This document shows positions 11,361 to 61,141 of a stretch of 64,000 bases of DNA, in pieces. The notes under the pieces are model-generated. The model searched no databases and was not told the DNA's origin. It worked only from the letters and a program-made list of their open reading frames with translations. Source of the stretch: Gammaproteobacteria bacterium (GTDB lineage Bacteria; Pseudomonadota; Gammaproteobacteria; SZUA-229); NCBI GenBank assembly GCA_026195255.1, contig JAPHSS010000020.1, positions 50,887 to 114,886 on the forward strand, in the 5' to 3' direction. Numbering within the stretch: the stretch's first letter is position 1; every line of letters begins with the position of its first letter. Both the position numbers and the translations under genes were made by a program.

Positions 11361-11383
11361 ACAGCTTGCCCTGCCCTGCCCTG

Positions 11384-11566
11384 GCACATCTCCATCGGGG
11401 AAAGGTCTCGTTTTTTGAGCCCTGTCCCCTAAACCCATACCACCAGAAGCTGACAGTGTAGGGTGTCGACTCCGTAAAACTCTTAGTGGTATGGGTTTAG
11501 GGGACAGAGCGCCAAACAGCGGCGGTCTTTCCCCGATGGAGATGTGCCTGAGCAGTGCAATGAATA
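11384..11566. repeat. Roughly 180-bp structured palindromic intergenic repeat, copy 1 (nested inverted repeats, MITE/REP-like)
   Basis: The outer 22-bp perfect inverted repeat GGCACATCTCCATCGGGGAAAG / CTTTCCCCGATGGAGATGTGCC encloses an inner 21-bp inverted repeat CCTGTCCCCTAAACCCATACC / GGTATGGGTTTAGGGGACAG. A second copy lies at 30100-30280. Confidence 0.8.
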
Positions 11567-18800: not shown

Positions 18801-20430
18801 ACCTGGTGAAGGCGGAGAGTTGCCGGGCACAAAGGTCGATGACCTGATTGCTCGGTTACGTCATTCAACACCAGGTGTCGGTTTAATCAGCCCACCACCT
18901 CATCACGATATTTATTCTATCGAAGATTTAGCACAGCTAATTCACGATTTGAAAAACGCCAATCGTACTGCTCGCATTTCGGTTAAGTTAGTGGCAGAAA
19001 ATGGAGTTGGAACAATTGCATCCGGGGTAACTAAAGCACATGCAGATCACATTGTTATCGCAGGTCATGATGGTGGCACCGGCGCCTCACCCATCACATC
19101 AATCAAACACGCAGGACTACCATGGGAACTAGGTGTAGCTGAAACGCACCAAACCCTGGTTATGAATGATCTACGGTCACGCGTTGTTATTCAAACCGAC
19201 GGTCAGATGAAAACCGGTCGTGATGTTGCCATGGCCGCATTACTGGGCGCCGAAGAATATGGTTTTGCAACTGCGCCATTAATTACCATGGGTTGCATTA
19301 TGATGCGTAAGTGTCATTTAAATACCTGCCCTGTTGGTATTGCGACTCAAGATAAAGAATTGCGTAAGAAATTTAAAGGCAAACCAGAACATGTTGTGAA
19401 TTATCTGTTTATGGTGGCTGAAGACTTACGAAAAATCATGGCCCAATTAGGTTTCCGCACTATCAATGAAATGATTGGTCGTGTTGATTGTTTAGAGCAG
19501 GTTACTGATTCTGAGCACTGGAAACAAACGGGCATTGATTTAAGCATGTTATTAACACCGGCGGAAAAACCACATGCGAATGTTGAAGTCCACCAGACCA
19601 TTAAACAGGATCACGGTTTAGATAAAGCATTAGATAACCAGTTAATCGAACTATCTAAAGACGCTTTAGGCAACGGCACAATCGTTAACATCGACTTACC
19701 GATTATTAATACAAATCGTGTTATAGGAACCATGTTATCGAATGAAGTCGCCAAGAAATATGGTTCAGCCTTATTACCTGACGGCACCATCAATATTAAA
19801 TTGAGCGGTTCTGCGGGCCAGTCATTAGGTGCATTTCTGGCCAGCGGCATCACCATTGAAGTTGAAGGTGATGCTAATGATTATGTAGGCAAAGGCTTAA
19901 GTGGCGGTCGGGTGATTGTGACACCAGCTAAAAATGCAACTTTTGTGGCAGAAGAAAATATTATTGTAGGCAATGTATGTTTGTACGGTGCAACATCTGG
20001 TGAGGCCTATTTCCGCGGTATCGCAGCTGAACGTTTCTGCGTCAGAAACTCTGGTGCAACCGCTGTTGTTGAAGGCATTGGCGACCACGGTTGTGAATAT
20101 ATGACGGGTGGTCGAATTGCAGTCCTCGGCACTATAGGGCGTAACTTTGCTGCAGGCATGAGTGGTGGCATCGCTTATATCTGGGATCATGCAGGCGACC
20201 TGTCAACCAAGTGTAATATGGGCATGGTTGAACTAGAAACTGTTTCTGCAGCTGAAGATATAAACGAACTTAAAACAATGATTGAAAACCATCTTAAATA
20301 TACTGGTTCTGCAGTAGCAGAACGATTATTAAAAGATTGGGACGGAGCGTTAAGTCAGTTTGTTAAAGTAATGCCAACAGATTACAAACGCGTACTTGAA
20401 GAACAGAAAAAGAAAGCGAATGCAGCTTAA
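15868..20430 (+). CDS. gltB: Glutamate synthase (NADPH) large subunit GltB
   Basis: A 1520-aa protein. The N-terminal amidotransferase domain starts with the Cys in CGVGFVAHIKG, followed by the FMN-binding domain and the C-terminal GXGXG domain. Confidence 0.95.
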   Translation: MSNNEIFNQYTRPNKHGLYDPANETENCGVGFVAHIKGQASHQIILDADQMARRMKHRGACGCETNTGDGAGIMTGLPYAFLTRVAKESFDIELPKKGQYAAGNVFLPVDDKERAQCKKLVNELIEASGQKLIGWRELPIDPIKADIGSTARQAMPHMEQLFVAAADGVTNDDFERKLYILRKDATHTIRANQNIKQADLFYFCSLSTKVIVYKGMLNPNQVMPFYTDLNAEDFTSHLAMVHSRFSTNTFPSWDRAQPKRFMSHNGEINTRLGNASWMAAREGTAKSELFGDDIKRILPVIEPEVSDSGSFDNVLEFLLMGGRSLQEAVMMMVPEAWQNDSSMSEEKRAFYEYQSALMEPWDGPASIVFTDGRYIGATLDRNGLRPSRYYLTHDDRVIMASEVGVIPVDSDNVKLKGRLQPGKMFLIDFDQGRMIPDEELKHEFASKQPYHQWLSNQRISLSQLEPKQEPHGFSQDDLLPRMRAFGYTSETMQFMLLPLVKEGRDPVGSMGNDAALACMSDKSRMIYDYFKQLFAQVTNPAIDSIREEVVMSLQCYIGPEKNLLESSEEHAHRLLIPHPIITNEELAALKHMNFRGWTTQTIDMTYDKSEGEAGLANTLNRICDEATQAIEDGHSLVILSDRNISKDRIPVSALLVTGSVHQHLVKKHLRTRIGLVLESGEAREVHHHCLLTGYGIDAINPYLAFEALWDAQRKGLLDQNIYDTDEKIVESYRKSVGKGMFKVFAKMGISTLQSYKAAQIFEAVGLAEDVITRCFEGTASRIQGVNLNVLAEEAMRRHALGYDARESKVTVLPNQGDMHWRANGDKHMWNPQSIASLQQAARSGDKSAFDRFVKLANEDTKKCTLRGMLNFKTDVNPAIDISEVEEAKDIVKRFATGAMSFGSISPESHESLAIAMNRMGGKSNTGEGGEDDARWTPEPNGDSRRSAIKQVASGRFGVTINYLTNADELQIKVSQGAKPGEGGELPGTKVDDLIARLRHSTPGVGLISPPPHHDIYSIEDLAQLIHDLKNANRTARISVKLVAENGVGTIASGVTKAHADHIVIAGHDGGTGASPITSIKHAGLPWELGVAETHQTLVMNDLRSRVVIQTDGQMKTGRDVAMAALLGAEEYGFATAPLITMGCIMMRKCHLNTCPVGIATQDKELRKKFKGKPEHVVNYLFMVAEDLRKIMAQLGFRTINEMIGRVDCLEQVTDSEHWKQTGIDLSMLLTPAEKPHANVEVHQTIKQDHGLDKALDNQLIELSKDALGNGTIVNIDLPIINTNRVIGTMLSNEVAKKYGSALLPDGTINIKLSGSAGQSLGAFLASGITIEVEGDANDYVGKGLSGGRVIVTPAKNATFVAEENIIVGNVCLYGATSGEAYFRGIAAERFCVRNSGATAVVEGIGDHGCEYMTGGRIAVLGTIGRNFAAGMSGGIAYIWDHAGDLSTKCNMGMVELETVSAAEDINELKTMIENHLKYTGSAVAERLLKDWDGALSQFVKVMPTDYKRVLEEQKKKANAA

Positions 20431-20456: not shown

Positions 20457-20652
20457 AAAACGCGAATGAACGCTAATAAACGCAAATGCACGCTAAATTA
20501 ATTTTACGTACATAATAGTGTTGCCATTTCTGGATAATTGCTTCGGAAATCTAACGCCACTTAAAAGAATAAGTCCCCGACGCATTCGGGGAGAACAACA
20601 CGATATATATTGATTTGCGTTTATTTACGGTTATTTGCGTTCATTTGCGTTA
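20457..20652. repeat. Structured gltB-gltD intergenic element: two inverted arrays of four 10-bp direct repeats (consensus yATTTGCGTT) flanking a roughly 115-bp core that contains a GC hairpin
   Basis: Left array, read on the minus strand: ATTTAGCGTG CATTTGCGTT TATTAGCGTT CATTCGCGTT. Right array: GATTTGCGTT TATTTACGGT TATTTGCGTT CATTTGCGTT. Core hairpin GTCCCCGACGCATTCGGGGAG at about 20573-20593. Confidence 0.6.
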
Positions 20653-20685
20653 AATCTTTTATTACAAAAGGTTATAAATAATAGT

Positions 20686-22134
20686 ATGGGTAAGATTACA
20701 GGTTTTAAAGAATTCGAACGCAAGACTGCACCTTATCGTGACGTAACTGAACGTCTGAAAGATTTTGGTGAAATCTATACCGAACATGATAACCAGCACC
20801 TGATTACACAGGGCGCACGTTGCATGGATTGTGGCATTCCTTTCTGTCAGTCAGATGATGGCTGCCCGGTTGATAATCTAATTCCTGAATGGAACGATCT
20901 GGTTTACAACAATCGCTGGCAAGATGCTAACGAACGTTTACATCACACTAATAACTTTCCTGAATTCACTGGCCGTGTCTGTCCCGCGCCCTGTGAAGGC
21001 TCATGTGTATTAGGTATAAACAGTCCTGCCGTAACTATTAAAAACATTGAATGTGCAATTGTAGACCGTGCATTTGATGAAGGATGGATTACCGCTCAAG
21101 CGCCAGCAACTCGTAGCAGTAAAAAAGTAGCCGTTGTAGGCTCTGGCCCTGCAGGTATGGCGGCAGCACAGGAATTAAACCGGGCAGGTCATACGGTTAC
21201 TGTTTATGAACGCGCTGACCGCATTGGCGGCCTGTTAATGTACGGCATACCCAACATGAAACTCGACAAAAGTATTATTGATCGCCGGGTTCAGTTAATG
21301 AAAGACGAAGGCATTGAATTTAAAACAAATGCTGATGTTGGTAACAATATTGATATAAAAGAATTAAAACAAAACACTGATGCCATTTTATTTGCAACGG
21401 GCGCAACCACACCCCGAGATTTACCCGTAGATGGTCGTGATTTAAATGGCGTTCACTTCGCAATGGATTTTCTGACTGCAAACACAAAAAGCCTGTTAGA
21501 TTCAAATCTTCAAGACGATAACTATATTAGCGCTAAAGACAAACATGTTGTTGTTATTGGTGGTGGAGATACCGGTACTGACTGTATCGGCACCTCATTA
21601 CGCCACGGCTGCAAATCTGTTGTTAACTTCGAGTTAATGCCAGTACCGCCTGAGGCTCGTGCTGAAAACAATCCGTGGCCCGCCTGGCCTCACATCTACC
21701 GTGTAGACTATGGCCACGAAGAAGCAAAAAAAGTACAGGGAGAAGACCCTCGCACTTACTGTGTACTGAGCAAAGGTTTTACAGGCACTGACGGAAACGT
21801 TTCTAGCGTTAAAACTATTGAAGTTGAGTGGCATAGCGATGAAGAGACCGGCCAATGGAAAATGCAGGAAGTTGCTGGCTCTGAAAAAGAATGGCCAGCT
21901 GATTTAGTATTACTGGCAATGGGTTTTCTGGGTCCAGAACACTATGTAAGTGATGCGCTAGAAATTGAATATGATGAGCGTTCAAACTACAAAGCTGAAT
22001 ATGGAAAGTACGCCACCAGTATAGAGGGTGTTTATGCAGCAGGTGATTGCCGTCGCGGACAGTCTTTAGTTGTTTGGGGAATCAATGAAGGTCGCCAGGC
22101 AGCTGCCGAAATAGATCAGTTTCTGATCAGCTAA
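20686..22134 (+). CDS. gltD: Glutamate synthase small subunit GltD
   Basis: Fe-S cysteine clusters ([18 protein letters not shown]) and the FAD/NAD(P) dinucleotide fold [14 protein letters not shown]. Start chosen at the ATG at 20686, after an RBS. Confidence 0.9.
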
Positions 22135-28198: not shown

Positions 28199-28332
28199 CA
28201 GCTCAGCCAGTAATAAATATTATTCGTTAGAAAGCCATAATACAGACACATAATTAAAACATATCAGCTTATTAACCTCCCCTGGTTAACAAAAACTCTG
28301 TGTTATGTTCGCCTCTGTGGCAAAATAGCCAC

Positions 28333-30078
28333 ATGGCTGGCCGTATACCTCAACAATTCATTGACGACCTTATCAATCGTGCTGACATAGTCGACGTTGT
28401 AGACTCACGTGTCGCCTTAAAAAAGCGCGGCAAAGAACATATTGCCTGCTGCCCTTTCCATAATGAAAAAAGCCCTTCTTTTACTGTTAGTCAAAGTAAG
28501 CAGTTTTATCATTGTTTTGGCTGTGGAGCCCATGGCACTGCACTTGGCTTCATAATGGAGTACGAGCGTCTTGACTTTGTAGATGCCATTGAAGTACTTG
28601 CCGCTGAGTACCATATCGACGTACCTCGTGAACAGGGCAGTTTTAACCCCCAGCAAGATGACAAAAAACCACTCTATGAAATTTTAGAAAAAGCCTCTCT
28701 TAATTTCGCAAATGAATTAAAAAAAACACCTCGTGCGGTAGAATATTTAAAACAGCGCGGCTTAAGTGGTGAAATTGCAAAAGACTTTCAAATGGGTTAC
28801 GCACCTGATAGCTGGGATTTCACACTAGGGCAACCAGGCCTGAGTAAAGAAGATAAAACTGCCTGCCTAAAGTCAGGTTTGAGCATCGAAAAAAGCCCTC
28901 AGAAACATTACGACCGTTTTCGTGACCGTATAATGTTTCCTATACGAGACCGACGCGGTCGTACAATTGGCTTTGGTGGCCGCATACTGGATAAGGGAGA
29001 GCCCAAATATTTAAACTCCCCTGAAACCCCGGTATTTCATAAAGGCGAAGAGTTATATGGCTTATATGAAGCAAGGCAATCAGTAAAAGACTTAAAACGG
29101 ATTGTCATTGTTGAAGGTTATATGGACGTTGTTGCACTTGCACAACATGGAATCAAATATGCGGTAGCCACCCTGGGAACGGCTACTTCAGAAACACAGA
29201 TATCCAAACTGTCTCGCATCGTTCCTGAATTAATTTTTTGTTATGATGGTGATGCGGCAGGAAAAAAAGCAGCCTGGCGAGCATTAGAAAATTCACTCTC
29301 TGTATTACGAGATGGTATACAGGCAAGATTTTTATTCTTACCAGATGGAGAAGACCCTGACACCCTGGTCAGGCAAGAAGGGCAACAGGCTTTCGAACAA
29401 CGTTTAAGTAATGCGACACCTCTCTCAGATTTTATGTTGCAACATTTATCAGAAGATCTGGATTTATCTTCTGCCGATGGTTGTGGTCGACTTTCAGAAA
29501 AGGCCAAACCCTTAATTAGTAAAATTGAAGATGGTGTATTTAAAGACCTGTTAGTTAATCAACTTTCAAAAATGATTGGTTTATCCAGTTCCAGCCTGCA
29601 ACAACACATCCCCGAGTCGAAAAACAAAACACAAACTCCGCACTACAATAACAGAGCAGTGTCTGCAAAACACCAGATCAGCATGACCCCTACCCGTCTT
29701 GCCATTGCGCTATTATTACAACACCCGTCACTTGCAAAAGAGTGTGAAATTCCCGAACAACTTTTATCCTCTGATATGCCGGGTTTAAAACTGCTAATAC
29801 AAATACACAAAACAATATTACAAACAGATGCAATCTCACCTTCGGTTTTAGTTGAACGCTGGCGAGACACTATTGACGCACCTGTTATTAATAAACTTAT
29901 GCAACTAGATATACCTGAAGCGAAGAAAGATACGCAACTCGCATCTTTAAAAGATGCTTTTAAGAATCTGCTGCAAAAACACAAAGACGAACGCCTACAG
30001 GAATTACTAAACAAAAGCCGCACATCTGAATTAAGCTCAGATGAAAAAAGTGAATTAAGCCAGCTTTATCAGAGCTAA
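28333..30078 (+). CDS. dnaG: DNA primase DnaG
   Basis: MAGRIPQQFIDDLINRADIVDVV N-terminus, a CHC2 zinc finger (CCPFHNEKSPSF…CFGCGAHG), the TOPRIM domain, and a C-terminal DnaB-interaction domain. Confidence 0.9.
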   Translation: MAGRIPQQFIDDLINRADIVDVVDSRVALKKRGKEHIACCPFHNEKSPSFTVSQSKQFYHCFGCGAHGTALGFIMEYERLDFVDAIEVLAAEYHIDVPREQGSFNPQQDDKKPLYEILEKASLNFANELKKTPRAVEYLKQRGLSGEIAKDFQMGYAPDSWDFTLGQPGLSKEDKTACLKSGLSIEKSPQKHYDRFRDRIMFPIRDRRGRTIGFGGRILDKGEPKYLNSPETPVFHKGEELYGLYEARQSVKDLKRIVIVEGYMDVVALAQHGIKYAVATLGTATSETQISKLSRIVPELIFCYDGDAAGKKAAWRALENSLSVLRDGIQARFLFLPDGEDPDTLVRQEGQQAFEQRLSNATPLSDFMLQHLSEDLDLSSADGCGRLSEKAKPLISKIEDGVFKDLLVNQLSKMIGLSSSSLQQHIPESKNKTQTPHYNNRAVSAKHQISMTPTRLAIALLLQHPSLAKECEIPEQLLSSDMPGLKLLIQIHKTILQTDAISPSVLVERWRDTIDAPVINKLMQLDIPEAKKDTQLASLKDAFKNLLQKHKDERLQELLNKSRTSELSSDEKSELSQLYQS

Positions 30079-30099
30079 TTTAATACTCGCTAACCAATG

Positions 30100-30280
30100 A
30101 ACATCTCCCTCGGGGAAAGGTCGACGTTTTTTTTGCGCCCTGTCCCCTTATTGATGCCATCAAGAGTTTTACGGAGTCGAATCGCTATCCTGTCAGCTCT
30201 TGATGGTATGGGCTTAGGGGACAGGGCTTAAAAAACAAGACCTTTCCCCGAGGGCTGTGCACCTGAACAGTGCAATCTCT
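30100..30280. repeat. Roughly 180-bp structured palindromic intergenic repeat, copy 2, with the central core inverted relative to copy 1
   Basis: ACATCTCCCTCGGGGAAAGGTC … CCCTGTCCCCTT … GGTATGGGCTTAGGGGACAG … GACCTTTCCCCGAGGG … CCTGAACAGTGCAAT. The core AAGAGTTTTACGGAGTCGA…TGTCAGC is the reverse complement of the copy-1 core. Confidence 0.8.
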
Positions 30281-30356
30281 TTCAGCTCATAACAATCTGT
30301 TGTTCGTCTCGTTTACACGGTTCTGCGTGGGAACAAGATGCGGTTAGATAATATAT

Positions 30357-31253
30357 TTATCTGCCTCTCGCCAGAACAGTTACGCCACTAATAACCAGAA
30401 CAATGCCAACTGCATGAAATAATGTAAAAGGCTCATTCAAAAACCATATCGCCAACACAATTGTTACCATGGGGCCTAATGTCCCGATAACTCCCGTTTG
30501 TGCCGGCCCAATTTTTGCTATTGACTCGGCTATCATAAAACTTGGAATAACCGTGCTGAAAACAGCTAGTAATAAAATCCATAACCAGGCTAACCAGCTC
30601 ACGGTTAATGCACTGTAATCTAAAAACAGCGCGTAATAAATTAATACAAATACACTGGAAACAATCATTGCAATACTTGTGAACCACAAACTGCCCACCT
30701 TATGAATCACTTTTTTACCCACTAATACATATATAGAAAAGCTAAGTGCCGCAAAAAAAACAAGTAACGTACCTAATACAACATTTTCACCTGATAAGGA
30801 CGACTCTTGATAAAACACAATCCACACACCGGCATAAGTTATAAGAAGTGCTGTAATAATATTTTTTGTTAACGGTGTTTTAAAAAATATTGCACCGAGT
30901 AAAGCGACTAAAATGGGATAACTGAAAAGCGTTAACCTTTCAAGCTGTGCTGATATGTACTCCAGACCCTTTAAATCTAACCATGAAGACAAGAAGTAAC
31001 CGATAAACCCTAGAAATATAATTTTACCTATATTTTCACCAAGGCACACTGGAAGAGAATCAGATCGTCGAATTAACCATATCAGTATTAATAGATATAT
31101 CGGCAAGGAAATAGCCATGCGTAACATCAATACACTATCTGCATTCAGGCCTTCCAGATAGGCTAGCTTTATGAATATCGATTTGAGAGAAAACAGGGCT
31201 GTTCCCAGAATAGCTAAAAGGAAGCCAGTGGCCCTGGGGGATAGTGATAACAT
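30357..31253 (-). CDS. EamA/DMT-family transporter with 10 TM helices
   Basis: Two EamA-like repeats with multiple hydrophobic helices over 298 aa. Confidence 0.65.
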   Translation of the reverse strand: MLSLSPRATGFLLAILGTALFSLKSIFIKLAYLEGLNADSVLMLRMAISLPIYLLILIWLIRRSDSLPVCLGENIGKIIFLGFIGYFLSSWLDLKGLEYISAQLERLTLFSYPILVALLGAIFFKTPLTKNIITALLITYAGVWIVFYQESSLSGENVVLGTLLVFFAALSFSIYVLVGKKVIHKVGSLWFTSIAMIVSSVFVLIYYALFLDYSALTVSWLAWLWILLLAVFSTVIPSFMIAESIAKIGPAQTGVIGTLGPMVTIVLAIWFLNEPFTLFHAVGIVLVISGVTVLARGR

Positions 31254-31398: not shown

Positions 31399-31466
31399 CC
31401 GCACTGAGGAGCGCTGCAGCAGATCTCTCTGTCAGGCTTAGTGCATCTTTTTTAAACGGCGCTCAT
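31399..31466 (+). ncRNA. Probable S-adenosylhomocysteine (SAH) riboswitch in the metK leader
   Basis: GCACUGAGGAGCGCUGCAGC … GUCAGGCUUAGUGC … AACGGCGCUCA. A P1 helix (GCACU/AGUGC), the GAGGAGCGCUGC and CAGGCU cores, and a 3' ACGGCGCUC element that could pair with GAGCGC in a pseudoknot all match the SAH-element consensus as I recall it. A TATAAT -10 lies at 31386-31391. Confidence 0.55.
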
Positions 31467-31588
31467 TTATTAGTTTCTAGTTTGGCTAAAAATGAGCACG
31501 GATCTAAAATCGGCATAATCTGCCACTACAAGATTCACTCATATGGCTTTATTAGCGCTGCTAGTATTTGTATCGAGGAATTGTAAAC

Positions 31589-32749
31589 ATGTCAAAAAGT
31601 CACCTATTTACATCTGAATCCGTATCAGAAGGACATCCTGATAAGGTTGCTGATCAGATATCGGACGCTATCCTGGATGGTATTTTTCAACAGGATCCGA
31701 AAGCACGTGTAGCTTGTGAAACACTTATTAACACCGGTATGGTTGTTTTATCAGGCGAGATAACCACTGAAGCATGGGTCGATATGCAGCAAATTGTGCG
31801 CGATACTGTGCGAAATATTGGTTATACCAGCTCCGAAATGGGCTTTGATGCTGATTCCTGTGCAGTTATCACCTCTATCGACAAACAGTCTCCTGATATT
31901 GCTATGGGCGTTAATGAGGGAGAAGACCACGAGCAAGGTGCTGGTGATCAGGGTCTTATGTTTGGTTATGCCTGTAATGAAACAGACGTACTTATGCCTG
32001 CACCGATTACTTATGCGCATAAACTCGTTAGACGTCAGGCAGAAGTGCGTAAAAATGGCACATTAAACTGGTTACGCCCGGATGCTAAAAGTCAGGTTAC
32101 TTTCCGTTATGAAGATGGCGTTCCTGCAGGCATTGAGGCGGTTGTTTTATCAACACAACATTCTCCTGATATCAGCCTGAGCGCACTGCGTGAAGCCGTT
32201 ATGGATGAAATTATTAAGCCAGTATTGCCGGCTGAGCTAATCAGTAAAGACACTAAATATCATATCAACCCAACGGGTAACTTCGTTATTGGTGGCCCTG
32301 TTGGTGACTGTGGTTTAACTGGCCGTAAAATCATTGTTGATACTTACGGCGGTATGGCGCGTCACGGTGGTGGTGCCTTCTCTGGTAAAGACCCCTCAAA
32401 AGTCGATCGCTCTGCTGCTTATGCTGGTCGTTATGTTGCAAAGAATATTGTTGCCGCTGGTCTGGCTGACAAATGTGAAATTCAGGTTTCGTACGCAATC
32501 GGTGTTGCCGAGCCTACCTCTATTTCTATTGAAACATTCGGCACAGGCAAAATTGATGATAGCCGCATTGAAGAACTGGTACGCGAACATTTCAACCTCA
32601 AACCAAAAGGCCTTATTCAAATGCTTGATCTATTGCGCCCAATCTACGCAAATACAGCAGCTTATGGTCATTTTGGCAGAACTGAAGATAACTTTACCTG
32701 GGAACGTACAGATAAAGCAGCAGCACTAAAAGACGCAGCTGGTATTTAA
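31589..32749 (+). CDS. metK: S-adenosylmethionine synthetase MetK
   Basis: [30 protein letters not shown], plus the GAGDQG and GGGAFSGKD motifs. Start chosen at the ATG at 31589. Confidence 0.95.
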
Positions 32750-32839: not shown

Positions 32840-34246
32840 ATGAGTGAATTTACAGATTATAAAGTAGCAGATATGTCTCTGGCTGAATGGGGCCGTAAAG
32901 AGATTTCAATTGCAGAAATTGAAATGCCAGGCCTGATGGCGTTACGTGAAGAATATGCAGGCAAAAAACCATTAGATGGTTGCCGCATTATGGGCAGCAT
33001 TCACATGACAATACAGACGGCTGTGCTAATCGAAACCTTAGTTGATCTGGGTGCCAGTGTACGCTGGGTTTCTTGCAATATTTTCTCTACACAGGATCAT
33101 GCGGCGGCGGCTATCGCTGCGCAGGACATTCCTGTTTTTGCCTGGAAAGGTGAAACTATCGAGGAATACTGGTGGTGTACTGAACAGGCACTATTATGGC
33201 CAAACGGTGAATTACCAAACATGATTCTTGATGATGGTGGTGATGCTACTCTTTTAGTTCACAAAGGTGTTGAGTTTGAAAAAGCAGGCGCTATTCCAGC
33301 AACTAAAGATGATGACAATGAAGAATACAAAGCTATTCTTGATGTACTACGCCGTACCATTGAGCCTGGCTCAAGCACATGGCAAGATATTGCAGCTAGC
33401 GTTAAAGGTGTAACTGAAGAAACAACCACAGGTGTTCACCGTTTATATGAAATGGAGAAAAAAGGTGAGTTACTTTTCCCTGCTATGAACGTGAATGATT
33501 CAGCAACAAAATCTAAATTCGATAATTTATACGGTTGCCGTGAATCACTAATCGACAGTATTAAACGTGCAACTGATGTAATGATTGCCGGTAAGATTTG
33601 TGTTGTTCTAGGATATGGCGATGTTGGCAAGGGTTGCGCTCAGGCTTTCAAAGGCATGGGAGCAACTGTGTGGGTTACAGAGATTGATCCTATATGTGCT
33701 TTACAGGCGGCAATGGAAGGTCACCGTGTTGTAGACATGAATGAAATTGTAGGCCAGGGCGATATCTTTGTTACGACTACTGGTAATGTAAATGTTATAG
33801 ACCATCACCATATGGAAGCAATGAAAAATGAAGCTATCGTATGTAATATTGGTCACTTCGATTCTGAAATTAATATTGCATCACTTGAAAAATACGAGTG
33901 GGAAGAAATCAAACCACAGGTTGATCACGTAATATTCCCGGACGGCAAAAAGATCATCATTCTTGCGAAGGGCCGTTTAGTTAATTTAGGTTGCGCAACT
34001 GGTCACCCAAGCTTTGTTATGTCAGCCTCATTTACTAATCAGGTAATGGCTCAAATTGAGTTCTTTACCAATGCACAGGCATACGAAAATAAGGTTTATA
34101 TTTTGCCTAAGAAACTTGATGAGAAGGTAGCACGTCTGCATTTAACTAAAATCGGTGCACATCTAACTCAACTTAGTGAAACTCAGGCCGAGTACATTAA
34201 TGTGCCTATCGATGGCCCATATAAAGCTGACCATTACCGCTACTAG
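32840..34246 (+). CDS. ahcY: Adenosylhomocysteinase AhcY
   Basis: A 468-aa protein with the NAD-binding motif [10 protein letters not shown] and the [18 protein letters not shown]-terminus. Confidence 0.95.
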
Positions 34247-34350: not shown

Positions 34351-35202
34351 ATGAAAACACAACAAAAACTAGACAAGCAATTTAGCTGTGAATTTTTTCC
34401 TCCTAAAACAGATATAGGAATGGAAAATCTTTTCAATACGGCTGAAACACTAAAAAAAGAAATTAATCCTGAATTTTTTTCTGTTACGTTTGGTGCCGGT
34501 GGCTCAACGCGTGAAACAACATTTAATGCGGTCACTAAAATACAAAAACAAACGGGTTGCAATGTAGCCCCTCATCTATCATGTATAGGTTCTAGCAAGC
34601 AACAGTTACAAAGCATTCTCGATGAATACAGGGCACAGGGAATAAAGCGGATTGTTGCCTTGCGCGGTGACATGCCTTCAGGCACCGTTTCACAAAGCGA
34701 CTTCAACCATGCCAATGAATTAGTTGCTTTTATTCGAGAAAATTTTGGTGATCAATTTCACCTTGAAGTAGCAGCATATCCTGAAGTTCATCCTCAAGCT
34801 GAAAACGCCATTCAAGATATGAAAAACTTCAAAACCAAAGTACTTGCTGGTGCAAATTCAGCTATAACTCAATATTTTTACAATATAGACAGTTATTTTT
34901 ACTTTATCGATAATTGTGAAAAATCGGGGCTCGACCTGCCCATTGTACCTGGCATAATGCCCATCACTAACTACAGCAACCTTGCGCGTTTTTCTGATAT
35001 GTGTGGTGCGGAAATACCTCGCTGGTTAAGACGAAAGCTTGAAGCTTACGCTGATGACACAGATTCAATTAAAGACTTTGGCGCTGATTTTGTTAGCTCA
35101 ATGAGCCAGAAACTATTAGACATGGGCGCGCCCGGCTTACACTTTTATTCCATGAATCAGAGCGAAGCAACACTACGCATATGGAATAACCTCAAATCTT
35201 AG
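34351..35202 (+). CDS. metF: 5,10-methylenetetrahydrofolate reductase MetF
   Basis: FEFFPPKT…FVSVTYGA-like start (SCEFFPPKTD…FFSVTFGAGGS), then APHLSCIG and IVALRGD motifs. Confidence 0.85.
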   Translation: MKTQQKLDKQFSCEFFPPKTDIGMENLFNTAETLKKEINPEFFSVTFGAGGSTRETTFNAVTKIQKQTGCNVAPHLSCIGSSKQQLQSILDEYRAQGIKRIVALRGDMPSGTVSQSDFNHANELVAFIRENFGDQFHLEVAAYPEVHPQAENAIQDMKNFKTKVLAGANSAITQYFYNIDSYFYFIDNCEKSGLDLPIVPGIMPITNYSNLARFSDMCGAEIPRWLRRKLEAYADDTDSIKDFGADFVSSMSQKLLDMGAPGLHFYSMNQSEATLRIWNNLKS

Positions 35203-35994: not shown

Positions 35995-36447
35995 TTACAT
36001 CATTACCTGTTTTACAATTGATTCAAGTTTTTCAATATTAACAATACTATAAGTACCATCAGCCATCATCACTTTGTCTTCAATGGCAGGGTGTGTTATT
36101 TCTTCTTTATTTGAAATAATATCTTCTTCTTTAACATTAACTACTGTCGGTGCATCCTGCATTAAAATTGACATGAACGGTAAGTTACTATCTTCACCAA
36201 TAGAAAACAAAATAGCCGCTTTAACTGAACCAGTAGCAAGACTCGGCATGCGAACATTACCCATTGCTTCAAATGAAATAAGTGGAACTGAATGTCCACG
36301 CCAATCTAAATAACCTAACATCCAGCCAGGTTTATTTGCCACATTAATAATATTTTTAATAGGCACTATTTCAGCTACCGCTGCATTAGGCATTAACAGC
36401 TCATCACCATTAATCTTTAATATTACACATTTAATTTCTTCAGACAT
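35995..36447 (-). CDS. chpC: CheW-like coupling protein ChpC
   Basis: A 150-aa CheW domain immediately downstream of chpA, with a 1-bp overlap. Confidence 0.7.
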   Translation of the reverse strand: MSEEIKCVILKINGDELLMPNAAVAEIVPIKNIINVANKPGWMLGYLDWRGHSVPLISFEAMGNVRMPSLATGSVKAAILFSIGEDSNLPFMSILMQDAPTVVNVKEEDIISNKEEITHPAIEDKVMMADGTYSIVNIEKLESIVKQVMM

Positions 36448-39400
36448 CAGTCAAGTAACTCATGTATATTTTCAAGTAATTCATCTTCCTGGAATGGTTT
36501 ACCCATATATTTGTTTACACCAATTTCCATTGCTTTGTCTTTATGCTTGGCGCCACTACGAGATGTAATCATTATTATAGGCAAATCAACCAGTCGAGGA
36601 TCATTCCTTACGTGCGTAGCTACTTCGTAGCCGTCCATTCTCGGCATCTCAATATCTAACAACATCACATCAGGTTTAATCTCCTGCAACTGTGATACAG
36701 CATCCACACCATCTTTCGCGGTGACAACTTTCATATCATGCCTGGTTAACATACGCTCTGTAACTTTACGAATGGTAATAGAATCATCAACTACCATAAC
36801 GATAGTTTCTCGTTTTTCTTCTGCTACAGGTAATACTTCACCCGCTGGGCTTTCAGTTTCATCTTCAGATTCTGTAATGTGGAATAAAGAATCTCCGAGA
36901 ACCAGGGAGTTCATTTCGAGAATAATGACTACACGGCCATCACCCAATATTGTAGCTCCAGAAATACCACGTACTGTGCTTATTTGTGAGCCAACTGGTT
37001 TAACAACCACTTCACGTCGACCAATTAACTCATCGACATGCAAGGCAACACTCTGCTCGCCAGTTCTGGCTAACAATACAGGGAACAACTGACCTGAACG
37101 TGAATAGTCAGGCTGCTCGCCTGTCAACATCTGTCCTAAATGTTTTAACTCATACGAACTGCCGGCAAACTCATACGTACTCTCGCCACTGTTATAGAAT
37201 TGTTGCAATTCCGGACCAGACAGTCGAACAACACCTTCAATACTATTCAATGGCACTGCGTAAATTTCATCACCCACATTAACAAGTAGTGCATGATTAA
37301 TAGCAAGTGTAAGCGGTAAACGAATTTTGAATGTTGTGCCCTTACCTTGAACAGTATCTATTTCTAAAACACCGCCAAGTTGTTTTATCTCGCTGTCAAC
37401 AACATCCATTCCAACACCACGGCCGGAAATTTGAGTAACTTTTTCAGCTGTACTAAAACCAGCTTCCATAATATATTGCAATACGTCATGATCGCTGATC
37501 TTACTATTGGCATCTAACAGGCCTTTTTCAGTTGCTTTCTTTCGTATTGCATTAACATCTATGCCGCGCCCGTCATCTTTAACAATAATGACAACATCAG
37601 CGCCTTCACGATCAACGACTATTTTAAGCGTACCTGAATCTGGCTTACCTGCAGCCTGACGTTCAGCCACCTTTTCTATGCCATGCGATACCGCATTACG
37701 TAACATATGTTCAAGAGGTGCAACGATTCGGTCTAATACCGTTCGATCAACCTCAGACGTTTCACCAACAATTTCAAGCTCTACTTCTTTATCTAAATCT
37801 CGTGCAGTTTGGCGAACAATTCTTCGTAACCTTGACGCAAGCCCACCAAAGTGAACCATACGCGTACGCATCAAACCTTCCTGTAACTCAGTACTTACTC
37901 GAGATTCCTGTAACAGTAATGTTTCAGAGTCACGAACCTCTTCAGATAAAAGCTCTTTAATACTCTCTATATCACTTACAGTTTCCTGCAAGCTTCGTGA
38001 AATCTGTTGCATAGTTGAGAATCGGTCCATTTCTAATGGATCGAAATCTTCATCATACTGATCTGATTCCTTTTCATAACGTGAAAGAATCTGTGCTTCA
38101 GTCTCAATAGAAAGCTGGCGCAGCTGATCGCGCAAACGAATAACTGTTTGATTCATTTCTGAAAGGTTGAATGAAAAGTTTGATATCTGCTGGCCCATAC
38201 GTGCATGATATACACTAACTTCACCAGCATGATTTACCAGCTCATTTAATAGGTCAGATCGTACACGCACCTGTTCAGTGGCAATACTCTCTTTTTGCTG
38301 AGGGACTATTTTTTCGTGAGATTCATCTGATTTATCAAGAACCAGATCTGATGCGTCATTATTTTTAACGGATAGAGCTTCTACTGGCTCTTCTGAAGTA
38401 AGCTCATCTGTAGCCGGTTCATCTGAAGTTAACTCATCTGTAGTTGTCTCTAATTCTGCCTCTAGCTCGGCATCATCAATTACACTCACAGAAACATTAT
38501 CGACAGATTCAGCTGTTTCTTCGAGCAGTGATTCTGTACTTAATTCAACTTCATAAGTTGCATTTTCATCGAATACGAGCTCTTCTGTGTTAGCGGATTC
38601 GACATTATCTGCATCGTCGGGAATTTCAAAACCAAAGTCATCATCTGACTCTATGACAAGCTCTTCTGATAAAACATCTTCTTCTGACAGCTCAATTGAA
38701 AATGCTTCTGATTCATCAGTGTCTTCTTTTGTTATGCTTTTATCAGCCCCCCGGGGGGGCTCAGGCTCATCAACCTCTTCATTTAATGAAGCTGCCTGGC
38801 CATTATTTAAAGTTTTTTTTCCCTCTCTAATCGCATCAATATGCGAAATCAATGCAACAGCAGATGATAATGGTTTTCTATCTTTTACCTTAGATAACAT
38901 ATCAGACAACTTATCCAGAGCGTCATGGAATGCATTTGATATATCTTTACTGAATGGTAATTTTTTATCGTTTACAGCTATAACTAAAGATTCAAGAGCA
39001 TGTGTCAAGTCTCCTACAGGGCTTAGATCCGCCATCCTTGCACCACCCTTCAGTGTATGCAAATGACGCTGTAAATCTAAAACACTTTCTTCATCTTCAT
39101 TATTCGAATTCCAGCGCTGCAAACTATTTTCACAGTTATCTAGTAACTCTTCCGCCTCTTCCAGGAATATCTCTACTAACTCATCATCAACATCAGAGTA
39201 ACTAACTAACGACTCTTCACTATTTGTTTCATTACTAATTTCATTTACTGCGTCTATATCTTCAGTTTTTATTGATTGACTACGTTTCTCATCAACTAAC
39301 TCTTTGATGCGATTTAACAATGATGTATCGGATGACAGCTGATGATTTTTCTGTTCCAGCGCTTCCAGCATAGCAGAAACTTTATCAGTTACATCCCTAA

Positions 39401-42400
39401 TCAAACTAACGCCTGAGCTTGATATACTTAAGTCATTTCCATCAAGATACAAACGAACATATTTTTCAAGCTCGCCACATAATTCTGCAATCTCATCAAC
39501 TTCGGCAGTTCTGGCACTTCCAAATAATGTATGCAGCGCTCTTAAAAGTTCAGCATTGGCAGTTAACGGCTCAATTGACTGATTATGTAAATCAAGTAAA
39601 CTGTTTATTTTTTTCAGATGGTTTTCGGACTCACCCTTGAATATGTCAAATAATACAGGATCAATGTATATCTGTAACTTGTCTTCTGAAATCGGCTCAA
39701 TTTCTTCAGGTTCTGCTTCTTCTAACTGAATTTCATCTTCTAAAACGAGTTCATCAAAAGAAAAATCGTCTACTTCAACTACTTCTTCGTCAGATGAAGC
39801 AATCTGTAATGCTTCTAACTCTTCAGTTAAATCTATATCAAACTCATCATCAAAATCATTACCCGCTTCTTCTAATTCCAGGTTTGAATTTACTTCGGGA
39901 GCTTCTTCTATAACATCTTCTAAAACCAGCTCATCTTCCGAAATTTCATCCATCAATTCGTCTTCTGAAATTTCAATTACTGCAGACTCATCAACAGTCA
40001 GGGCGGGTTCGTCAGGCTGATTTTCTGACTGCCCTTCTTCTAGCGACTCTGCTTCAGTTGTTTCTATATTTAATTGATCAGCTTCTTCAACAGGGTTCTC
40101 TACTTTAGATTTTTTTATAGCCGAAGCAGGCTTATCAGCTGTCGGCTTTTCCCACTTTCCCAGCGCATCTGTCCTGTCAATTAGCTGGTATATATTGGGA
40201 ATAGGCTCTTTATTGCCTTTTAACTGCTCTATTAACTGAGGTAAGACACCTAATGACTCATGTAATATATCAAACACATCCTGTGTAAGAGGGCGTGATT
40301 TATCAATCACGCGATTAAGCATATTTTCAAAATTCCAGGAAAACTCACCTATAAGTTCCGCACCAATTAAACGCCCACTGCCCTTTAATGTATGAAATGA
40401 ACGACGAATAGTACTTAATGCTTCCTGGTTACCATGATCACGCTCCCAAAGAGGAATTTGCTCATTCAGTGAAGCGAGCTCTTCCATTGCTTCTTCAATA
40501 AAAATTTCTAATATTTCTTCATCTGCATCATCGCCAAGAATGATATAACGCTCTTCTTCTACTGCGGATTTACTTACAACCTCTGGCGCAGCTTCTTCAG
40601 TCTCTACGTCAGGCGGCGCTTCAGCTACAACATTCTGTTCAGGTTCTTCAGGCGATTTTTCCTGAGTGCTGTCTGGCTGAACATCGGCATCACTAACACC
40701 GCTTTCAGCTGCTATAGCTAATAACCTGTCTGCTGCCTCATTACCTGAGGTCATCGACAATTCAAGATCTGGACGACCTTCCAATACCGCCTCAAGATAA
40801 TACTCAATACTGGTAACGACATCCGCAAGATCATTTTGCACCGAGGCTTCTGGTATCTGCCCGGCATTTAACATAACTTTTGAAACATACTCACGAACAG
40901 AAACTGTCTGGTGTTTTAGTTTTTGAATAGGCAACATAAACATTGCACCATCAACTTCATCCAGGCGCTGAATGATTAAATCTAGCAAACTTTTATCAAC
41001 TGGATTTTCAAGATAACTCAGAATAGCCAGTCTTGCGTCATTGAAGTCCTGTAATGCCTCGCGTATTACCGCTGCCAGCACTTCCAGGTATTCGCCTTCA
41101 GGCATATCTGCCAAATCACCAACGCGACGTGCTGGCTCATCTTCACCCGTAGATCGATTAGCAATAAAGCTATTTAACTGAGACTCAACTGCAAGCAGAA
41201 CACCCGCCACATTCATGATAAGTTCATCAGTTGGTTCTTTAGATTTAGAAATCACCTGATTAATTACTTCTTGCTGCTCAATAACCTGCTCTCGAGGCAT
41301 ACCCAGCCCAAGCATTGATAAAGTATCAGCAATTTTTGCAAGTAAGGCCGGTAAGTTATTCAAACGGCCTAAATCCTGTGCCTCACTATGAACAAATATT
41401 TCCAGAGTATCTTTAACTTCTAGTAAATCTTCGCGTATGCCCGCTGAAACAGTTTCTAACAACTCGGAATTCAGGCCACCCATTCCAGAGCGAGCTTCTT
41501 CCAGCTCAGTATCACCAGGTAATAATTCTTCCAGACGGTAAGTGGTTTTTATTTTTTTAACACGGGGTGAATCAGTTGTAATTCGCGCGACATAATAAAG
41601 CAGGTTTTTTAATAAATCAGATGGCGCATTAGCGGCAAAACTTTCTTCATCTGTATCAATCAGTTGCTTTATGCTTCTATCAACCTGACCTAATAACATT
41701 TTGATACTGACGTTACTGTCTATGCCGTCTTTAGTCAGGCCTTCAATTAATGCAGAACTTATAGACCAGATGCGGCGTGTTGAAGGGTTAGCCGACTTTT
41801 TCTCCAACTCACCTAATACCGCAAGGATACGCTTTAAACTGGCAGCAATTTTCTGCCCTTTAAACCAGCCAACCAAACCAATTTGATAATGCGGACGTAG
41901 TTTTTTTGCAGTAGCCACCAGTTGACCTGATTCAATATCAGTCTCAGCTTGCTCTGCATCAGTTTCAACATCAGGGAAAAATAAAACATTTTCAGATAAT
42001 AAACTTGCGTTACGAGAAGCACGCAAATCGTTTAACAACGGTAGCAATACCATGGGCACATCTTTCCTGCCCGACTGCAAGCTTTCCAGATAATCAGGTA
42101 ATTGCAGCATTGATCGCATCAAGACATCATAGGCATCGTCAACTTTTTCGATTTTGCCATTAAGTAACGCTTCGGAAACTTTTTCCATCTCCTCAGCTAA
42201 TTGCGCAGCACCATATAACTCGACCATTTGCAAAGTGCCCTGCACCATATGCAAATGCTCTACCGATTCGCGCAAGCGATCAGTGTCTTCTGTGTCTTCT
42301 ATATAAGCTGACAGTGAAGCCTGAGCTTCCTGTAATATCAGATCAAGTTCTTTTTTGACCCAACGCAGCGAATTATATTCAACAGTATCCTCTGTTTTCA

Positions 42401-42410
42401 TCTCTGACAA
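36447..42410 (-). CDS. chpA: ChpA: giant hybrid CheA-type histidine kinase with several Hpt domains, a kinase core, a CheW-like domain and a C-terminal receiver
   Basis: A 1987-aa protein with repeated HTLKG-type Hpt motifs (FHTLKGSGR, LHTLKGGARM and others), HATPase_c motifs (DDGRGID, GRGVGMDVV), and a C-terminal REC (MVVDDS…LLDIEMPRMDG…KP). It also has long acidic low-complexity linkers. Confidence 0.9.
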   Translation of the reverse strand: MSEMKTEDTVEYNSLRWVKKELDLILQEAQASLSAYIEDTEDTDRLRESVEHLHMVQGTLQMVELYGAAQLAEEMEKVSEALLNGKIEKVDDAYDVLMRSMLQLPDYLESLQSGRKDVPMVLLPLLNDLRASRNASLLSENVLFFPDVETDAEQAETDIESGQLVATAKKLRPHYQIGLVGWFKGQKIAASLKRILAVLGELEKKSANPSTRRIWSISSALIEGLTKDGIDSNVSIKMLLGQVDRSIKQLIDTDEESFAANAPSDLLKNLLYYVARITTDSPRVKKIKTTYRLEELLPGDTELEEARSGMGGLNSELLETVSAGIREDLLEVKDTLEIFVHSEAQDLGRLNNLPALLAKIADTLSMLGLGMPREQVIEQQEVINQVISKSKEPTDELIMNVAGVLLAVESQLNSFIANRSTGEDEPARRVGDLADMPEGEYLEVLAAVIREALQDFNDARLAILSYLENPVDKSLLDLIIQRLDEVDGAMFMLPIQKLKHQTVSVREYVSKVMLNAGQIPEASVQNDLADVVTSIEYYLEAVLEGRPDLELSMTSGNEAADRLLAIAAESGVSDADVQPDSTQEKSPEEPEQNVVAEAPPDVETEEAAPEVVSKSAVEEERYIILGDDADEEILEIFIEEAMEELASLNEQIPLWERDHGNQEALSTIRRSFHTLKGSGRLIGAELIGEFSWNFENMLNRVIDKSRPLTQDVFDILHESLGVLPQLIEQLKGNKEPIPNIYQLIDRTDALGKWEKPTADKPASAIKKSKVENPVEEADQLNIETTEAESLEEGQSENQPDEPALTVDESAVIEISEDELMDEISEDELVLEDVIEEAPEVNSNLELEEAGNDFDDEFDIDLTEELEALQIASSDEEVVEVDDFSFDELVLEDEIQLEEAEPEEIEPISEDKLQIYIDPVLFDIFKGESENHLKKINSLLDLHNQSIEPLTANAELLRALHTLFGSARTAEVDEIAELCGELEKYVRLYLDGNDLSISSSGVSLIRDVTDKVSAMLEALEQKNHQLSSDTSLLNRIKELVDEKRSQSIKTEDIDAVNEISNETNSEESLVSYSDVDDELVEIFLEEAEELLDNCENSLQRWNSNNEDEESVLDLQRHLHTLKGGARMADLSPVGDLTHALESLVIAVNDKKLPFSKDISNAFHDALDKLSDMLSKVKDRKPLSSAVALISHIDAIREGKKTLNNGQAASLNEEVDEPEPPRGADKSITKEDTDESEAFSIELSEEDVLSEELVIESDDDFGFEIPDDADNVESANTEELVFDENATYEVELSTESLLEETAESVDNVSVSVIDDAELEAELETTTDELTSDEPATDELTSEEPVEALSVKNNDASDLVLDKSDESHEKIVPQQKESIATEQVRVRSDLLNELVNHAGEVSVYHARMGQQISNFSFNLSEMNQTVIRLRDQLRQLSIETEAQILSRYEKESDQYDEDFDPLEMDRFSTMQQISRSLQETVSDIESIKELLSEEVRDSETLLLQESRVSTELQEGLMRTRMVHFGGLASRLRRIVRQTARDLDKEVELEIVGETSEVDRTVLDRIVAPLEHMLRNAVSHGIEKVAERQAAGKPDSGTLKIVVDREGADVVIIVKDDGRGIDVNAIRKKATEKGLLDANSKISDHDVLQYIMEAGFSTAEKVTQISGRGVGMDVVDSEIKQLGGVLEIDTVQGKGTTFKIRLPLTLAINHALLVNVGDEIYAVPLNSIEGVVRLSGPELQQFYNSGESTYEFAGSSYELKHLGQMLTGEQPDYSRSGQLFPVLLARTGEQSVALHVDELIGRREVVVKPVGSQISTVRGISGATILGDGRVVIILEMNSLVLGDSLFHITESEDETESPAGEVLPVAEEKRETIVMVVDDSITIRKVTERMLTRHDMKVVTAKDGVDAVSQLQEIKPDVMLLDIEMPRMDGYEVATHVRNDPRLVDLPIIMITSRSGAKHKDKAMEIGVNKYMGKPFQEDELLENIHELLD

Positions 42411-42419
42411 ACTCTAGCC

Positions 42420-44546: not shown

Positions 44547-44579
44547 AAACCATTTTGATCTTTATATTCGTTCTGTTTC

Positions 44580-45110: not shown

Positions 45111-45119
45111 TTTTTATTA

Positions 45120-45491: not shown

Positions 45492-45541
45492 TCAATTATT
45501 AAAACCTCTTAAATATTTATTTAATACGGCCTAACGACCAC

Positions 45542-59877: not shown

Positions 59878-59902
59878 TTTAATTCAACTTTAATTTTATT
59901 GT

Positions 59903-61072: not shown

Positions 61073-61141
61073 TCCAAACTCCAGTTATTATAATTATATG
61101 ATTTTAACGATCTCTAAAGCCTATCGATTACTTTAAAAATA

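Follow-up and report, generated by a model that had tools for sequence, protein, structure and literature searches.

A nested-palindrome intergenic repeat of uncultured sediment Gammaproteobacteria: reversal of the whole element between two loci of one genome and probable in-place inversion of its interior between lineages

Two copies of one intergenic repeat

We analysed a 64,000-nucleotide stretch of DNA (hereafter the window) from an uncultured marine-sediment gammaproteobacterium of the SZUA-229 lineage (assembly GCA_026195255.1, contig JAPHSS010000020.1, positions 50,887 to 114,886 of the forward strand). The window carries two copies, W1 and W2, of a ~190-bp non-coding, multi-copy intergenic repeat that is shared with relatives of this bacterium. 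Both copies sit between the convergent 3′ ends of two genes, W1 between plsY and tsaD and W2 between dnaG and a gene for an EamA/DMT transporter. Their parts are given below in window positions; labels such as L206 denote comparison loci.

11366..11560 (+): W1, a complete nested-palindrome repeat of ~195 bp in the core-frame orientation of the family, with a profile score of 210 bits
10743–11360 (+) and 11574–12611 (−): plsY and tsaD, whose 3′ ends face W1
11397–11404 and 11527–11534: outer inverted-repeat pair of W1, GGGGAAAG and CTTTCCCC, invariant in 40 copies and one of two levels of inversion breakpoints
11405–11421 (+): left spacer of W1, GTCTCGTTTTTTGAGCC, 'a' type, which forms a small hairpin
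11508–11526 (+): right spacer of W1, AGCGCCAAACAGCGGCGGT, 'A' type
11422–11429 and 11500–11507: inner inverted-repeat pair of W1, CTGTCCCC and GGGGACAG, which bounds the inner segment
11430..11499 (+): inner segment of W1, with the inner stems and an asymmetric core at 11449–11484
30086..30275 (−): W2, an element of ~190 bp with a profile score of 210 bits on the minus strand
28300–30078 (+) and 30357–31253 (−): dnaG and the EamA/DMT gene, whose 3′ ends face W2
30086–30111: left terminus of W2, a degenerate stub of a terminal repeat in which only AACATCTCCCTC is conserved
30112..30249 (−): outer span of W2, from GGGGAAAG (30112–30119) to CTTTCCCC (30242–30249)
30120–30241: interior of W2 between the outer motifs, 122 bp (134–138 bp counting the motifs), reverse-complemented in the orthologues L206 and L210
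30120–30139 and 30225–30241: spacers of W2
30140–30147 and 30217–30224: inner inverted-repeat pair of W2, CTGTCCCC and GGGGACAG
30148..30216 (−): inner segment of W2, with the inner stems and a core at 30162–30197

Both copies are strongly self-complementary. A repeat finder gives an arm complementarity of 90–91% within W1 and 84% within W2, and the single strands fold with −119.8 kcal/mol (z −11.8) and −97.7 kcal/mol (z −10.9), respectively. The core itself is not palindromic: 22/38 and 16/36 of its positions are identical to its own reverse complement, and its oriented scores are 31 vs 11 in W1 and 27 vs 8 in W2. In the core frame, the spacer arrangement of W2 (a / core / c) matches that of L203, L153, L129, L173, L172 and L084.

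W2 as a minus-strand copy of the whole element

A prediction made earlier from the letters alone (hereafter the original prediction) had correctly placed W2 between dnaG and the EamA/DMT gene. It held that only the central ~40 bp of this copy are opposite to W1, within flanks that keep their orientation. The opposite reading of the core is confirmed: the two quoted core strings occur once each, at 11449–11484 (+) and 30162–30197 (+), with 0 occurrences expected by chance, and they are reverse complements of each other except for the middle ~12 nt. The worry that such a reading could be trivial, because the core might be near-palindromic, is ruled out by the self-comparison above. The statement about the flanks fails. 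The quoted motif pairs (i.e. CATCTCC.TCGGGGAAAGGTC with GACCTTTCCCCGA.GGAGATG, and CCCTGTCCCCT with AGGGGACAGGG) are the two arms of one palindrome, and the motifs quoted on the left (CATCTCC.TCGGGGAAAGGTC and GCCCTGTCCCCT) are the reverse complements of those quoted on the right (AGGGGACAG and CTTTCCCCGA). Since the arms are palindromic, these motifs are identical before and after reversal of the element.

The less symmetric parts reveal that W2 is reversed as a whole, spacers and inner stem included. W1 and W2 are reported by the repeat finder as a 121-nt inverted pair with 80% identity, and their global alignment scores 199 when one copy is reverse-complemented (nearly gapless) vs 137 in direct orientation. 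The family profile scores 210 bits on the plus strand and 119 on the minus strand of W1, and 210 bits on the minus strand and 84 on the plus strand of W2. The left spacers agree at 15/20 positions directly, with gaps, and at 15/17 positions flipped, without gaps and with a compensatory C–G to T–A change; the right spacers agree at 8/19 positions directly and 12/20 flipped, and the left inner stems at 11/21 and 16/20. Two parts seem to be direct. The right terminal repeat, CCTGA.CAGTGCAA, does so (22/28 positions vs 17/27 flipped) because both copies stay close to the family consensus there, the other terminus of W2 being an old, degenerate stub common to its orthologues. The right inner stem of W1 does so because the inner stems of W1 are unusually symmetric, in a (P,P) state found in 4 family copies vs 59 in the usual (P,Q) state.

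W1 and W2 are paralogues at different loci and W2 is reversed as a whole, so this pair says nothing about inversion. The lesson for method is that palindromic arms that match in both copies are uninformative on orientation, and only asymmetric positions tell; inversion is demonstrable only through orthologous loci.

Composition and genomic context of the repeat family

A first scan of representative genomes with the pattern CTGTCCCCT N55–85 AGGGGACAG returned mostly unrelated DNA (Devosia and others) among the matches listed, together with at least seven true family loci from two metagenome-assembled genomes (MAGs) of uncultured Gammaproteobacteria, N1D-Bin_4 and OB6. Nitrate-amended salt-marsh sediment is the source of the N1D-Bin MAGs (bioRxiv 10.1101/2021.08.24.457596). 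The N1D-Bin_4 locus L084, which holds the W2 orthologue, matches the window at 92% identity across 8 kb. Metagenomes were then searched with a specific pattern, which gave 88 loci. From all loci together we extracted 94 distinct full copies, and the 1.7 Mb of retrieved DNA contains ~146 groups of profile matches (full, partial and duplicate). Elements lie on both strands (37 minus, 34 plus). No relevant match was found among PLSDB plasmids or IMG/VR viral contigs.

The element consists of terminal inverted repeats (TTGCACTGTTCAGGCACATCTCC), two nested inverted motif pairs, two T/A-loop spacers, an imperfect inner stem and an asymmetric core of ~35 nt. In the core frame its parts are:

Parts 1–2: terminal repeat TTGCACTGTTCAGGCACATCTCCATC, then GGGGAAAG
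Parts 3–5: left spacer (several types of small T-loop hairpin), CTGTCCCC, inner stem TTAACCCATACCACCAAGAG
Part 6: core CTGACAGTGTAG....CGACTCCGTAAAACTCTT
Parts 7–9: inner stem GATGGCATCACAACA, GGGGACAG, right spacer
Parts 10–11: CTTTCCCC, then terminal repeat GATGGAGATGTGCCTGAACAGTGCAA

The terminal inverted repeats, with consensus ends TTRCMCTGTTCAGGCACATCTCC ... GGAGATGTGCCTKAACAGKGYAA, are conserved in ~78 copies, and the four GGGGA(A/C)AG motifs of the two nested pairs are invariant in 40 aligned copies. RNAalifold analysis of these 40 copies finds covariation at 1/34 base pairs; the stems are almost invariant and thus conserved as sequence, which makes covariation uninformative. The asymmetry of the inner stem and the core go together (59 to 1). 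Spacer types (32 vs 11) and end types (6 vs 4) do not follow the core in this way, and this decoupling is why orthologous loci were compared.

Gene context is strongly biased towards 3′ ends, with 27 copies between convergent, 21 between tandem and 2 between divergent genes, and the direction of the core is unrelated to gene direction (7 vs 13, p = 0.26). The only open reading frames (ORFs) that overlap the element are spurious. Scans of W1 and W2 for promoters found nothing sigma-70-like, and those for terminators gave weak matches only; the main hairpin has no U-tract after it. In Rfam nothing reaches the gathering threshold, and the sub-threshold matches are generic hairpin (miRNA precursor) models only.

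Some copies depart from this plan. In ~10–15 of them one terminal repeat is replaced by a conserved end module (consensus about CTCGTATGATTGAGACACTC) that adjoins GGGGAAAG. The module is found on either side of the core (6 vs 4 in a strict count), at the right end in L124, L072, L129, L146, L164, L193 and L170, and at the left end in L127, L138, L149, L160, L164 and L185. A subfamily (L118, L121, L134, L168, L152, L160 and L178) has the same arms with a different core and inner stem, TGTGGTAATTCCGATCAGATGGGCAGTGCGATGAATAACTCCGCACAGTTCTTGGTGGCATCAAAACA.

Orientation of the interior at orthologous loci

Loci were taken as orthologous when both 900-nt flanks, offset by 120 nt, aligned with adjacent repeats excluded; matching of 200-nt flanks was confounded by neighbouring repeats, so the longer, offset flanks were used. 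This gave 22 orthologous groups, 20 of them informative, and orientation is mixed in 8 of these 20, including both window loci. Pairs with at least 98% flank identity all share one orientation (9 same, 0 flipped), while those with 83–93% identity comprise 16 same and 7 flipped pairs and those below 83% comprise 2 same and 5 flipped. Orientation differs only between lineages with 8–20% flank divergence. Independent assemblies agree with each other, as in L206/L207 (2 single-nucleotide differences apart), L220/L221/L222 and the window/L084. The element is kept at orthologous sites across lineages with 78–92% flank identity.

Orthologues of the dnaG–EamA spacer were retrieved through EamA homologues and turned to the orientation of the window; by EamA, the nearest named relatives are the endosymbiont of Galathealinum brachiosum (79%) and Thiomicrorhabdus (~71%). 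The states of this locus (with EamA identity) are:

Window and L084: spacer c / inner segment minus / spacer a′
L205 (91%): A′ / minus / c′
L206 (86%) and L210 (84%): a / plus / c′, which is the window interior reverse-complemented
L211 and L212 (84%): reduced to the outer stem and terminus of the right side
L215 (81%): mini-hairpin without the inner segment
L217 (80%): stub
L209 (85%): element absent, REP hairpin alone retained

The interiors of L206 and L210 thus run opposite to those of the window, L084 and L205, and the degenerate left stub (AATGAACATCTCC), right terminal repeat, linker and REP (repetitive extragenic palindrome) hairpin of L206 and L210 are all collinear with the window. 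The left spacer type of L205 differs from that of L206 and L210. L211, L215 and L217 retain stubs and therefore represent losses of the element, not empty target sites. At the plsY–tsaD locus, W1 and L219 (PlsY 90%) are 'plus', and L220–222 (89%) and L202 are 'minus'. L220–222 share a distinctive core variant of W1, TAGGGTGTCGAC, in the opposite orientation, and the unusual right arm of L219 is found reverse-complemented on the left of L220–222.

Comparison layer by layer separates two inversion units. Termini are direct, with spacers and inner segment flipped, in L128/L174, L117/L179 and the L118/L121/L134/L168 group. In L119/L135, L129/L175 and L129/L131, termini and spacers are both direct and only the 70-bp inner segment is flipped; in L129/L175 the right spacer is unchanged in place. 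L127/L138 shows a nested double event, and in L016/L129_8324 every layer is flipped, termini included. Breakpoints thus lie at the outer pair (L118/L168 and W2/L206) and at the inner pair (L129/L175 and L119/L135). The 134-bp interior of L168 is the exact reverse complement of that of L118/L134, both spacers included, within collinear flanks that are ~92% identical, and L128 and L174 have rare derived inner variants in common. Among the flipped interiors, those of the cleanest cases are each other's nearest relatives (ranks 1–4). Collinear termini and flanks, together with interiors that are reciprocal nearest relatives or share variants, indicate that these cases are true in-place inversions rather than new insertions.

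Two further observations concern single copies. The right inner stem of W1 (11486–11499) is the exact complement of the left one, whereas asymmetry is retained in the orthologues L219 and L220. At position 1094 of L127, an 81-nt inner segment has CTGACAG inverted at both ends of the loop, which extends the stem into the loop. Both look like template-switch corrections from arm to arm.

Interpretation and alternative explanations

Our results show that (i) W2 is a reversed copy of the whole element, and they indicate that (ii) the interior of the element has been inverted in place over evolutionary time, as either a 70-bp inner unit (CTGTCCCC to GGGGACAG) or a ~134-bp unit (GGGGAAAG to CTTTCCCC), slowly, and probably through its own inverted repeats and without a dedicated recombinase switch. 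We give this reading a probability of roughly 0.8. The inversions would arise through rare recombination between the short inverted arms of the element (14–25 bp) or, alternatively, through replication template switching across them. A process of palindrome correction and deletion would also yield symmetrised arms and deletions at the hairpin base, such as those at the dnaG–EamA locus in L211/212, L215 and L217. Quasipalindromes in Escherichia coli undergo template switching and rearrangement mediated by short inverted repeats as a general behaviour. Template switching would predict the set of products seen here, i.e. inversion, arm conversion (W1), stem extension (L127) and base deletion (L211, L215 and L217); it is a mechanism rather than a repeat family, and this spectrum of products is what suggests the link.

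Several observations weigh against this reading. The partner's inner segment is not the nearest relative in the diverged flipped pairs W1/L202, L119/L135 and L016/L129, which may have arisen by gene conversion from a paralogue or by re-insertion. Orientation was judged on assembled contigs, with which low-frequency variants within populations would be compatible. The inversion mechanism may be recombination, template switching or a trans-acting enzyme that recognizes GGGGAMAG, and conservation of these motifs and of the 3′ half of the core as sequence hints at protein binding or another function. As for the origin of the copies, target-site duplications of 2–9 bp, sought at any end offset in 28 copies, show no excess over shuffled pairings; no parent insertion sequence was found through solo terminal repeats in 0.9 Mb of family loci; and a search of the metagenome loci for clean empty sites, which would define the insertion point, found none. 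Target duplications at old insertions could be hidden by erosion.

Orthologues could instead differ through independent insertions, or through replacement by paralogues via ectopic gene conversion between the arms. The family is multi-copy and about equally frequent on both strands, and some loci fit this account: the inner segments of several diverged flipped pairs rank 43–70 of 86, L016/L129_8324 is reversed down to its termini, and L205 has a left spacer unlike that of L206/L210. Such ranking is a noisy measure above ~10% divergence, since same-orientation orthologues of similar divergence rank poorly too. Moreover, the termini and lineage-specific substitutions remain collinear around a reversed interior in L118/L134/L168, L128/L174 and W2/L206, and the clean interiors are reciprocal nearest or share rare variants (W1 and L220–222). 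We therefore consider this explanation unlikely for the set as a whole. Mis-orientation by metagenome assemblers, whose de Bruijn graphs may fail to orient a segment between inverted repeats, deserves attention because the comparison loci are mostly short-read metagenome contigs and inverted repeats are known to mislead assembly once the arms exceed the k-mer or read length. Perfect arms of 11–25 bp are far below the usual final k-mers and reads, and JGI, ENA, Logan and NCBI MAG assemblies of one lineage agree (9/9 pairs, L206/L207, L220/221/222 and the window/L084). Orientation differs only where flanks diverge by 8–20%. An artefact is thus extremely improbable.

The original prediction favoured a site-specific invertible segment, possibly a phase-variable switch. 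On this model the core would be inverted by a tyrosine or serine recombinase acting at the short inverted repeats, and expression of adjacent genes would be turned on or off. It is true that invariant short inverted repeats bound the interior, that both orientations occur at orthologous loci (dnaG–EamA included) and that GGGGAMAG is conserved as sequence, like a protein-binding site. Yet the search for a recombinase that was proposed with this idea, run here on the 53 window ORFs against Pfam and NCBIfam, found no tyrosine or serine recombinase, invertase, transposase or REP-associated tyrosine transposase (RAYT), and only the housekeeping RuvX. Nor does the element have a promoter-like site, and between convergent 3′ ends, as at W1 and W2, there is no promoter to switch. 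Breakpoints fall at two repeat levels with nested double events; near-identical contigs of independent assemblies all agree (9/9 pairs, L206/L207 and L220–222); and core orientation ignores gene direction (7 vs 13, p = 0.26). Known invertase substrates are, in addition, much longer than a 70–134-bp segment. Because no recombinase lies nearby, crossovers occur at several levels, promoters are lacking, the genes converge and near-identical genomes are uniform, a dedicated switch is very unlikely and this part of the original prediction is unsupported. Its other suggestion, that the inverted repeats recombine, is supported by the orthologous loci, with an inverted unit of 70 or 134 bp in place of the ~40-bp core.

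A related possibility is that the GGGGA(A/C)AG motifs are sites for a trans-acting enzyme, either an unseen transposase of the family itself or a RAYT-like protein, that actively flips interiors at hundreds of 3′-end loci. We think this improbable, if slightly less so than a local switch. If true, the family would constitute dispersed, MITE-borne orientation switches (a MITE is a miniature transposable element with inverted repeats), with a core that has a strand-specific role as a directional barrier to transcription or replication or as a small RNA. The element may, tentatively, be chiefly a functional structured nucleic acid whose orientation is neutral, either a bidirectional 3′-end hairpin that acts as a transcription barrier or mRNA stabilizer, or a protein-binding DNA. 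We give this a modest chance, well short of even, and it is compatible with in-place inversion. The 3′-end bias (27 convergent, 21 tandem, 2 divergent), persistence at orthologous sites at 78–92% flank identity, very stable hairpins and invariant motifs agree with such a function. The missing U-tract, with weak terminator-like matches only, compensatory covariation at 1/34 pairs, the lack of an Rfam family match, and deletion or reduction of the element in several lineages at the dnaG–EamA locus speak against it.

Comparison with known repeat systems and implications

We then compared the family with other small palindromic repeats. For the Correia repeat-enclosed elements (CREE/NEMIS) of Neisseria, in-place inversion is reported in a review (PMC10969869) that cites Elbeyioglu et al. 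(2017). These elements resemble the window family in being 100–200-bp non-coding, multi-copy intergenic palindromes that form hairpins, with ~25-bp terminal inverted repeats, in-place inversion and subtypes set by differing ends. By contrast, the window family occurs in another host lineage, has no TA or other target duplication that we could find and no promoter-like sites, and carries two nested inverted-repeat pairs with two inversion units and four GGGGAMAG motifs; its inversion is seen between lineages only, not within cultures. The 26-bp terminal repeats of Correia elements are not known to be related in sequence to those of the window family. The two are alike in function alone, and our findings extend the in-place inversion reported for Neisseria to an unrelated lineage.

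Hairpin-forming pairs of REP sequences (REPINs) offer a second comparison. Each arm of the window element (GGGGAAAG-spacer-CTGTCCCC) is an imperfect, REP-like palindrome (8 of 9), and the two arms are inverted and form a long hairpin. Other likenesses are vertical persistence at orthologous sites and the true REP-like hairpins and REP doublets that adjoin many copies. REPINs give rise to 'long palindromic singlet' derivatives through loss of their centre (PMC3337134), and L215 has lost the centre of the element in a like manner. Differences lie in the clear terminal inverted repeats of ~24 bp that flank the REP-like arms, the conserved asymmetric core and the absence of a RAYT among the 53 window ORFs. 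In addition, a GTAG or CGTC tag at the 5′ end defines a REP (PMC3733652), whereas the consensus arms here start with TCGGGGAAAG and CCCTGTCCCC and have no such tag. The family cannot be assigned strictly to either the Correia or the REPIN group, as it shows no target duplication and is not known to be related in sequence to either of them.

With MITEs, the non-autonomous derivatives of DDE transposons, the family shares terminal inverted repeats and a small (~190 bp), non-coding, multi-copy form (94 full copies), but no excess of target-site duplications was found in 28 copies. The family looks like a MITE or REPIN, with no mobilizing enzyme found in the window, and it could have spread either as a MITE that lost its target duplications or as a REPIN-like element. 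Classical switches (e.g. fimS/FimBE, hin/gin and Bacteroides invertible promoters) likewise hold a segment in both orientations between short inverted repeats. Unlike them, the window element has no adjacent recombinase or internal promoter, spans 70–134 bp vs several hundred bp, shows several breakpoint levels with many copies at gene 3′ ends, and is uniform in orientation among near-identical genomes. ERIC/IRU, YPAL and other palindromic repeats of enterobacteria are also imperfect palindromes (127–170 bp) in transcribed intergenic regions on both strands; we know of no apparent similarity between their consensus sequences and the window family, nor of in-place inversion as a described feature of theirs.

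Our results do not reveal a new regulatory switch. They describe an abundant and previously undescribed hairpin repeat that persists vertically in uncultured sediment Gammaproteobacteria related to the sulfur cycle, and its nested inverted repeats record a whole range of palindrome rearrangements in nature (i.e. two inversion sizes, arm symmetrization and hairpin-base deletion). The family may thus provide a natural data set for rates of rearrangement between short inverted repeats.

Adjoining REP-like module and other features of the window

A second module lies beside W2:

30276..30344 (+): linker TCTCTTTCAGCTCATAACAATCTG (30276–30299) and a REP-like hairpin, GTTTACACGG TTCT GCGTGGGAAC, at about 30311–30334

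At least 12 further copies of the element have the same linker and REP-like hairpin at one of their ends. This hairpin, (T)ATGCAT-TCCCACG-N6-CGTGGGA-ACGAGAT, belongs to a second repeat family that often forms REPIN-like inverted doublets ~70 bp apart. A conserved linker, CAGATTGTTATGAGCTGAAAGAGA, usually connects this hairpin to one end of the 190-bp element, and 27/33 REP-like hairpins lie within 250 bp of an element. Besides the window, such hairpin loci occur in L174 (8907–9139), L132 (6334–6427), L161 (556–639), L164 (2356–2446), L170 (5018–5106) and L182 (3169–3259).

The gene order around W2 differs from that of enterobacteria in that dnaG is not followed by rpoD and converges on the EamA/DMT gene (28300–31253). 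The tsaD gene, 16 kb away, has rpsU upstream of it (as L219–L222 show), so the rpsU–dnaG–rpoD operon is split in this lineage. Divergent from the EamA gene, an S-adenosylhomocysteine (SAH) riboswitch (RF01057; 58 bits, gathering score 37) at 31400–31471 (+) precedes an operon of metK (31568–32749), ahcY (32840–34246) and metF (34351–35202).

Short tandem arrays occur in two other spacers. Mutually inverted heptamer arrays (TAAGTCA / GACTTAC; 14623–14659 and 14712–14740, with 5.4 and 3.9 copies) flank a terminator-like hairpin, GCAGGCCCCCTAAGGTGAGCCTGC with a T-run after it, in the spacer between hemE and an NTP-transferase gene, and similar heptamers adjoin the element in L202. Inverted decamer arrays (AAACGCTAAT / ATTTGCGTTT; 20458–20496 and 20613–20651, ~3.9 copies each) sit in the spacer between gltB (15868–20430) and a gltD-like gene (20635–22134).

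The window also contains a Pil-Chp type chemosensory cluster (36447–45955, minus strand) that encodes a 1987-aa ChpA-like kinase with at least four Hpt domains, a PilJ-like methyl-accepting chemotaxis protein, CheW and two receiver proteins. Serine-rich coding repeats of 15 nt lie at 38386–38443, and three tandem paralogues of PilT/PilU-like ATPases are encoded at 58738–62176 on the minus strand.

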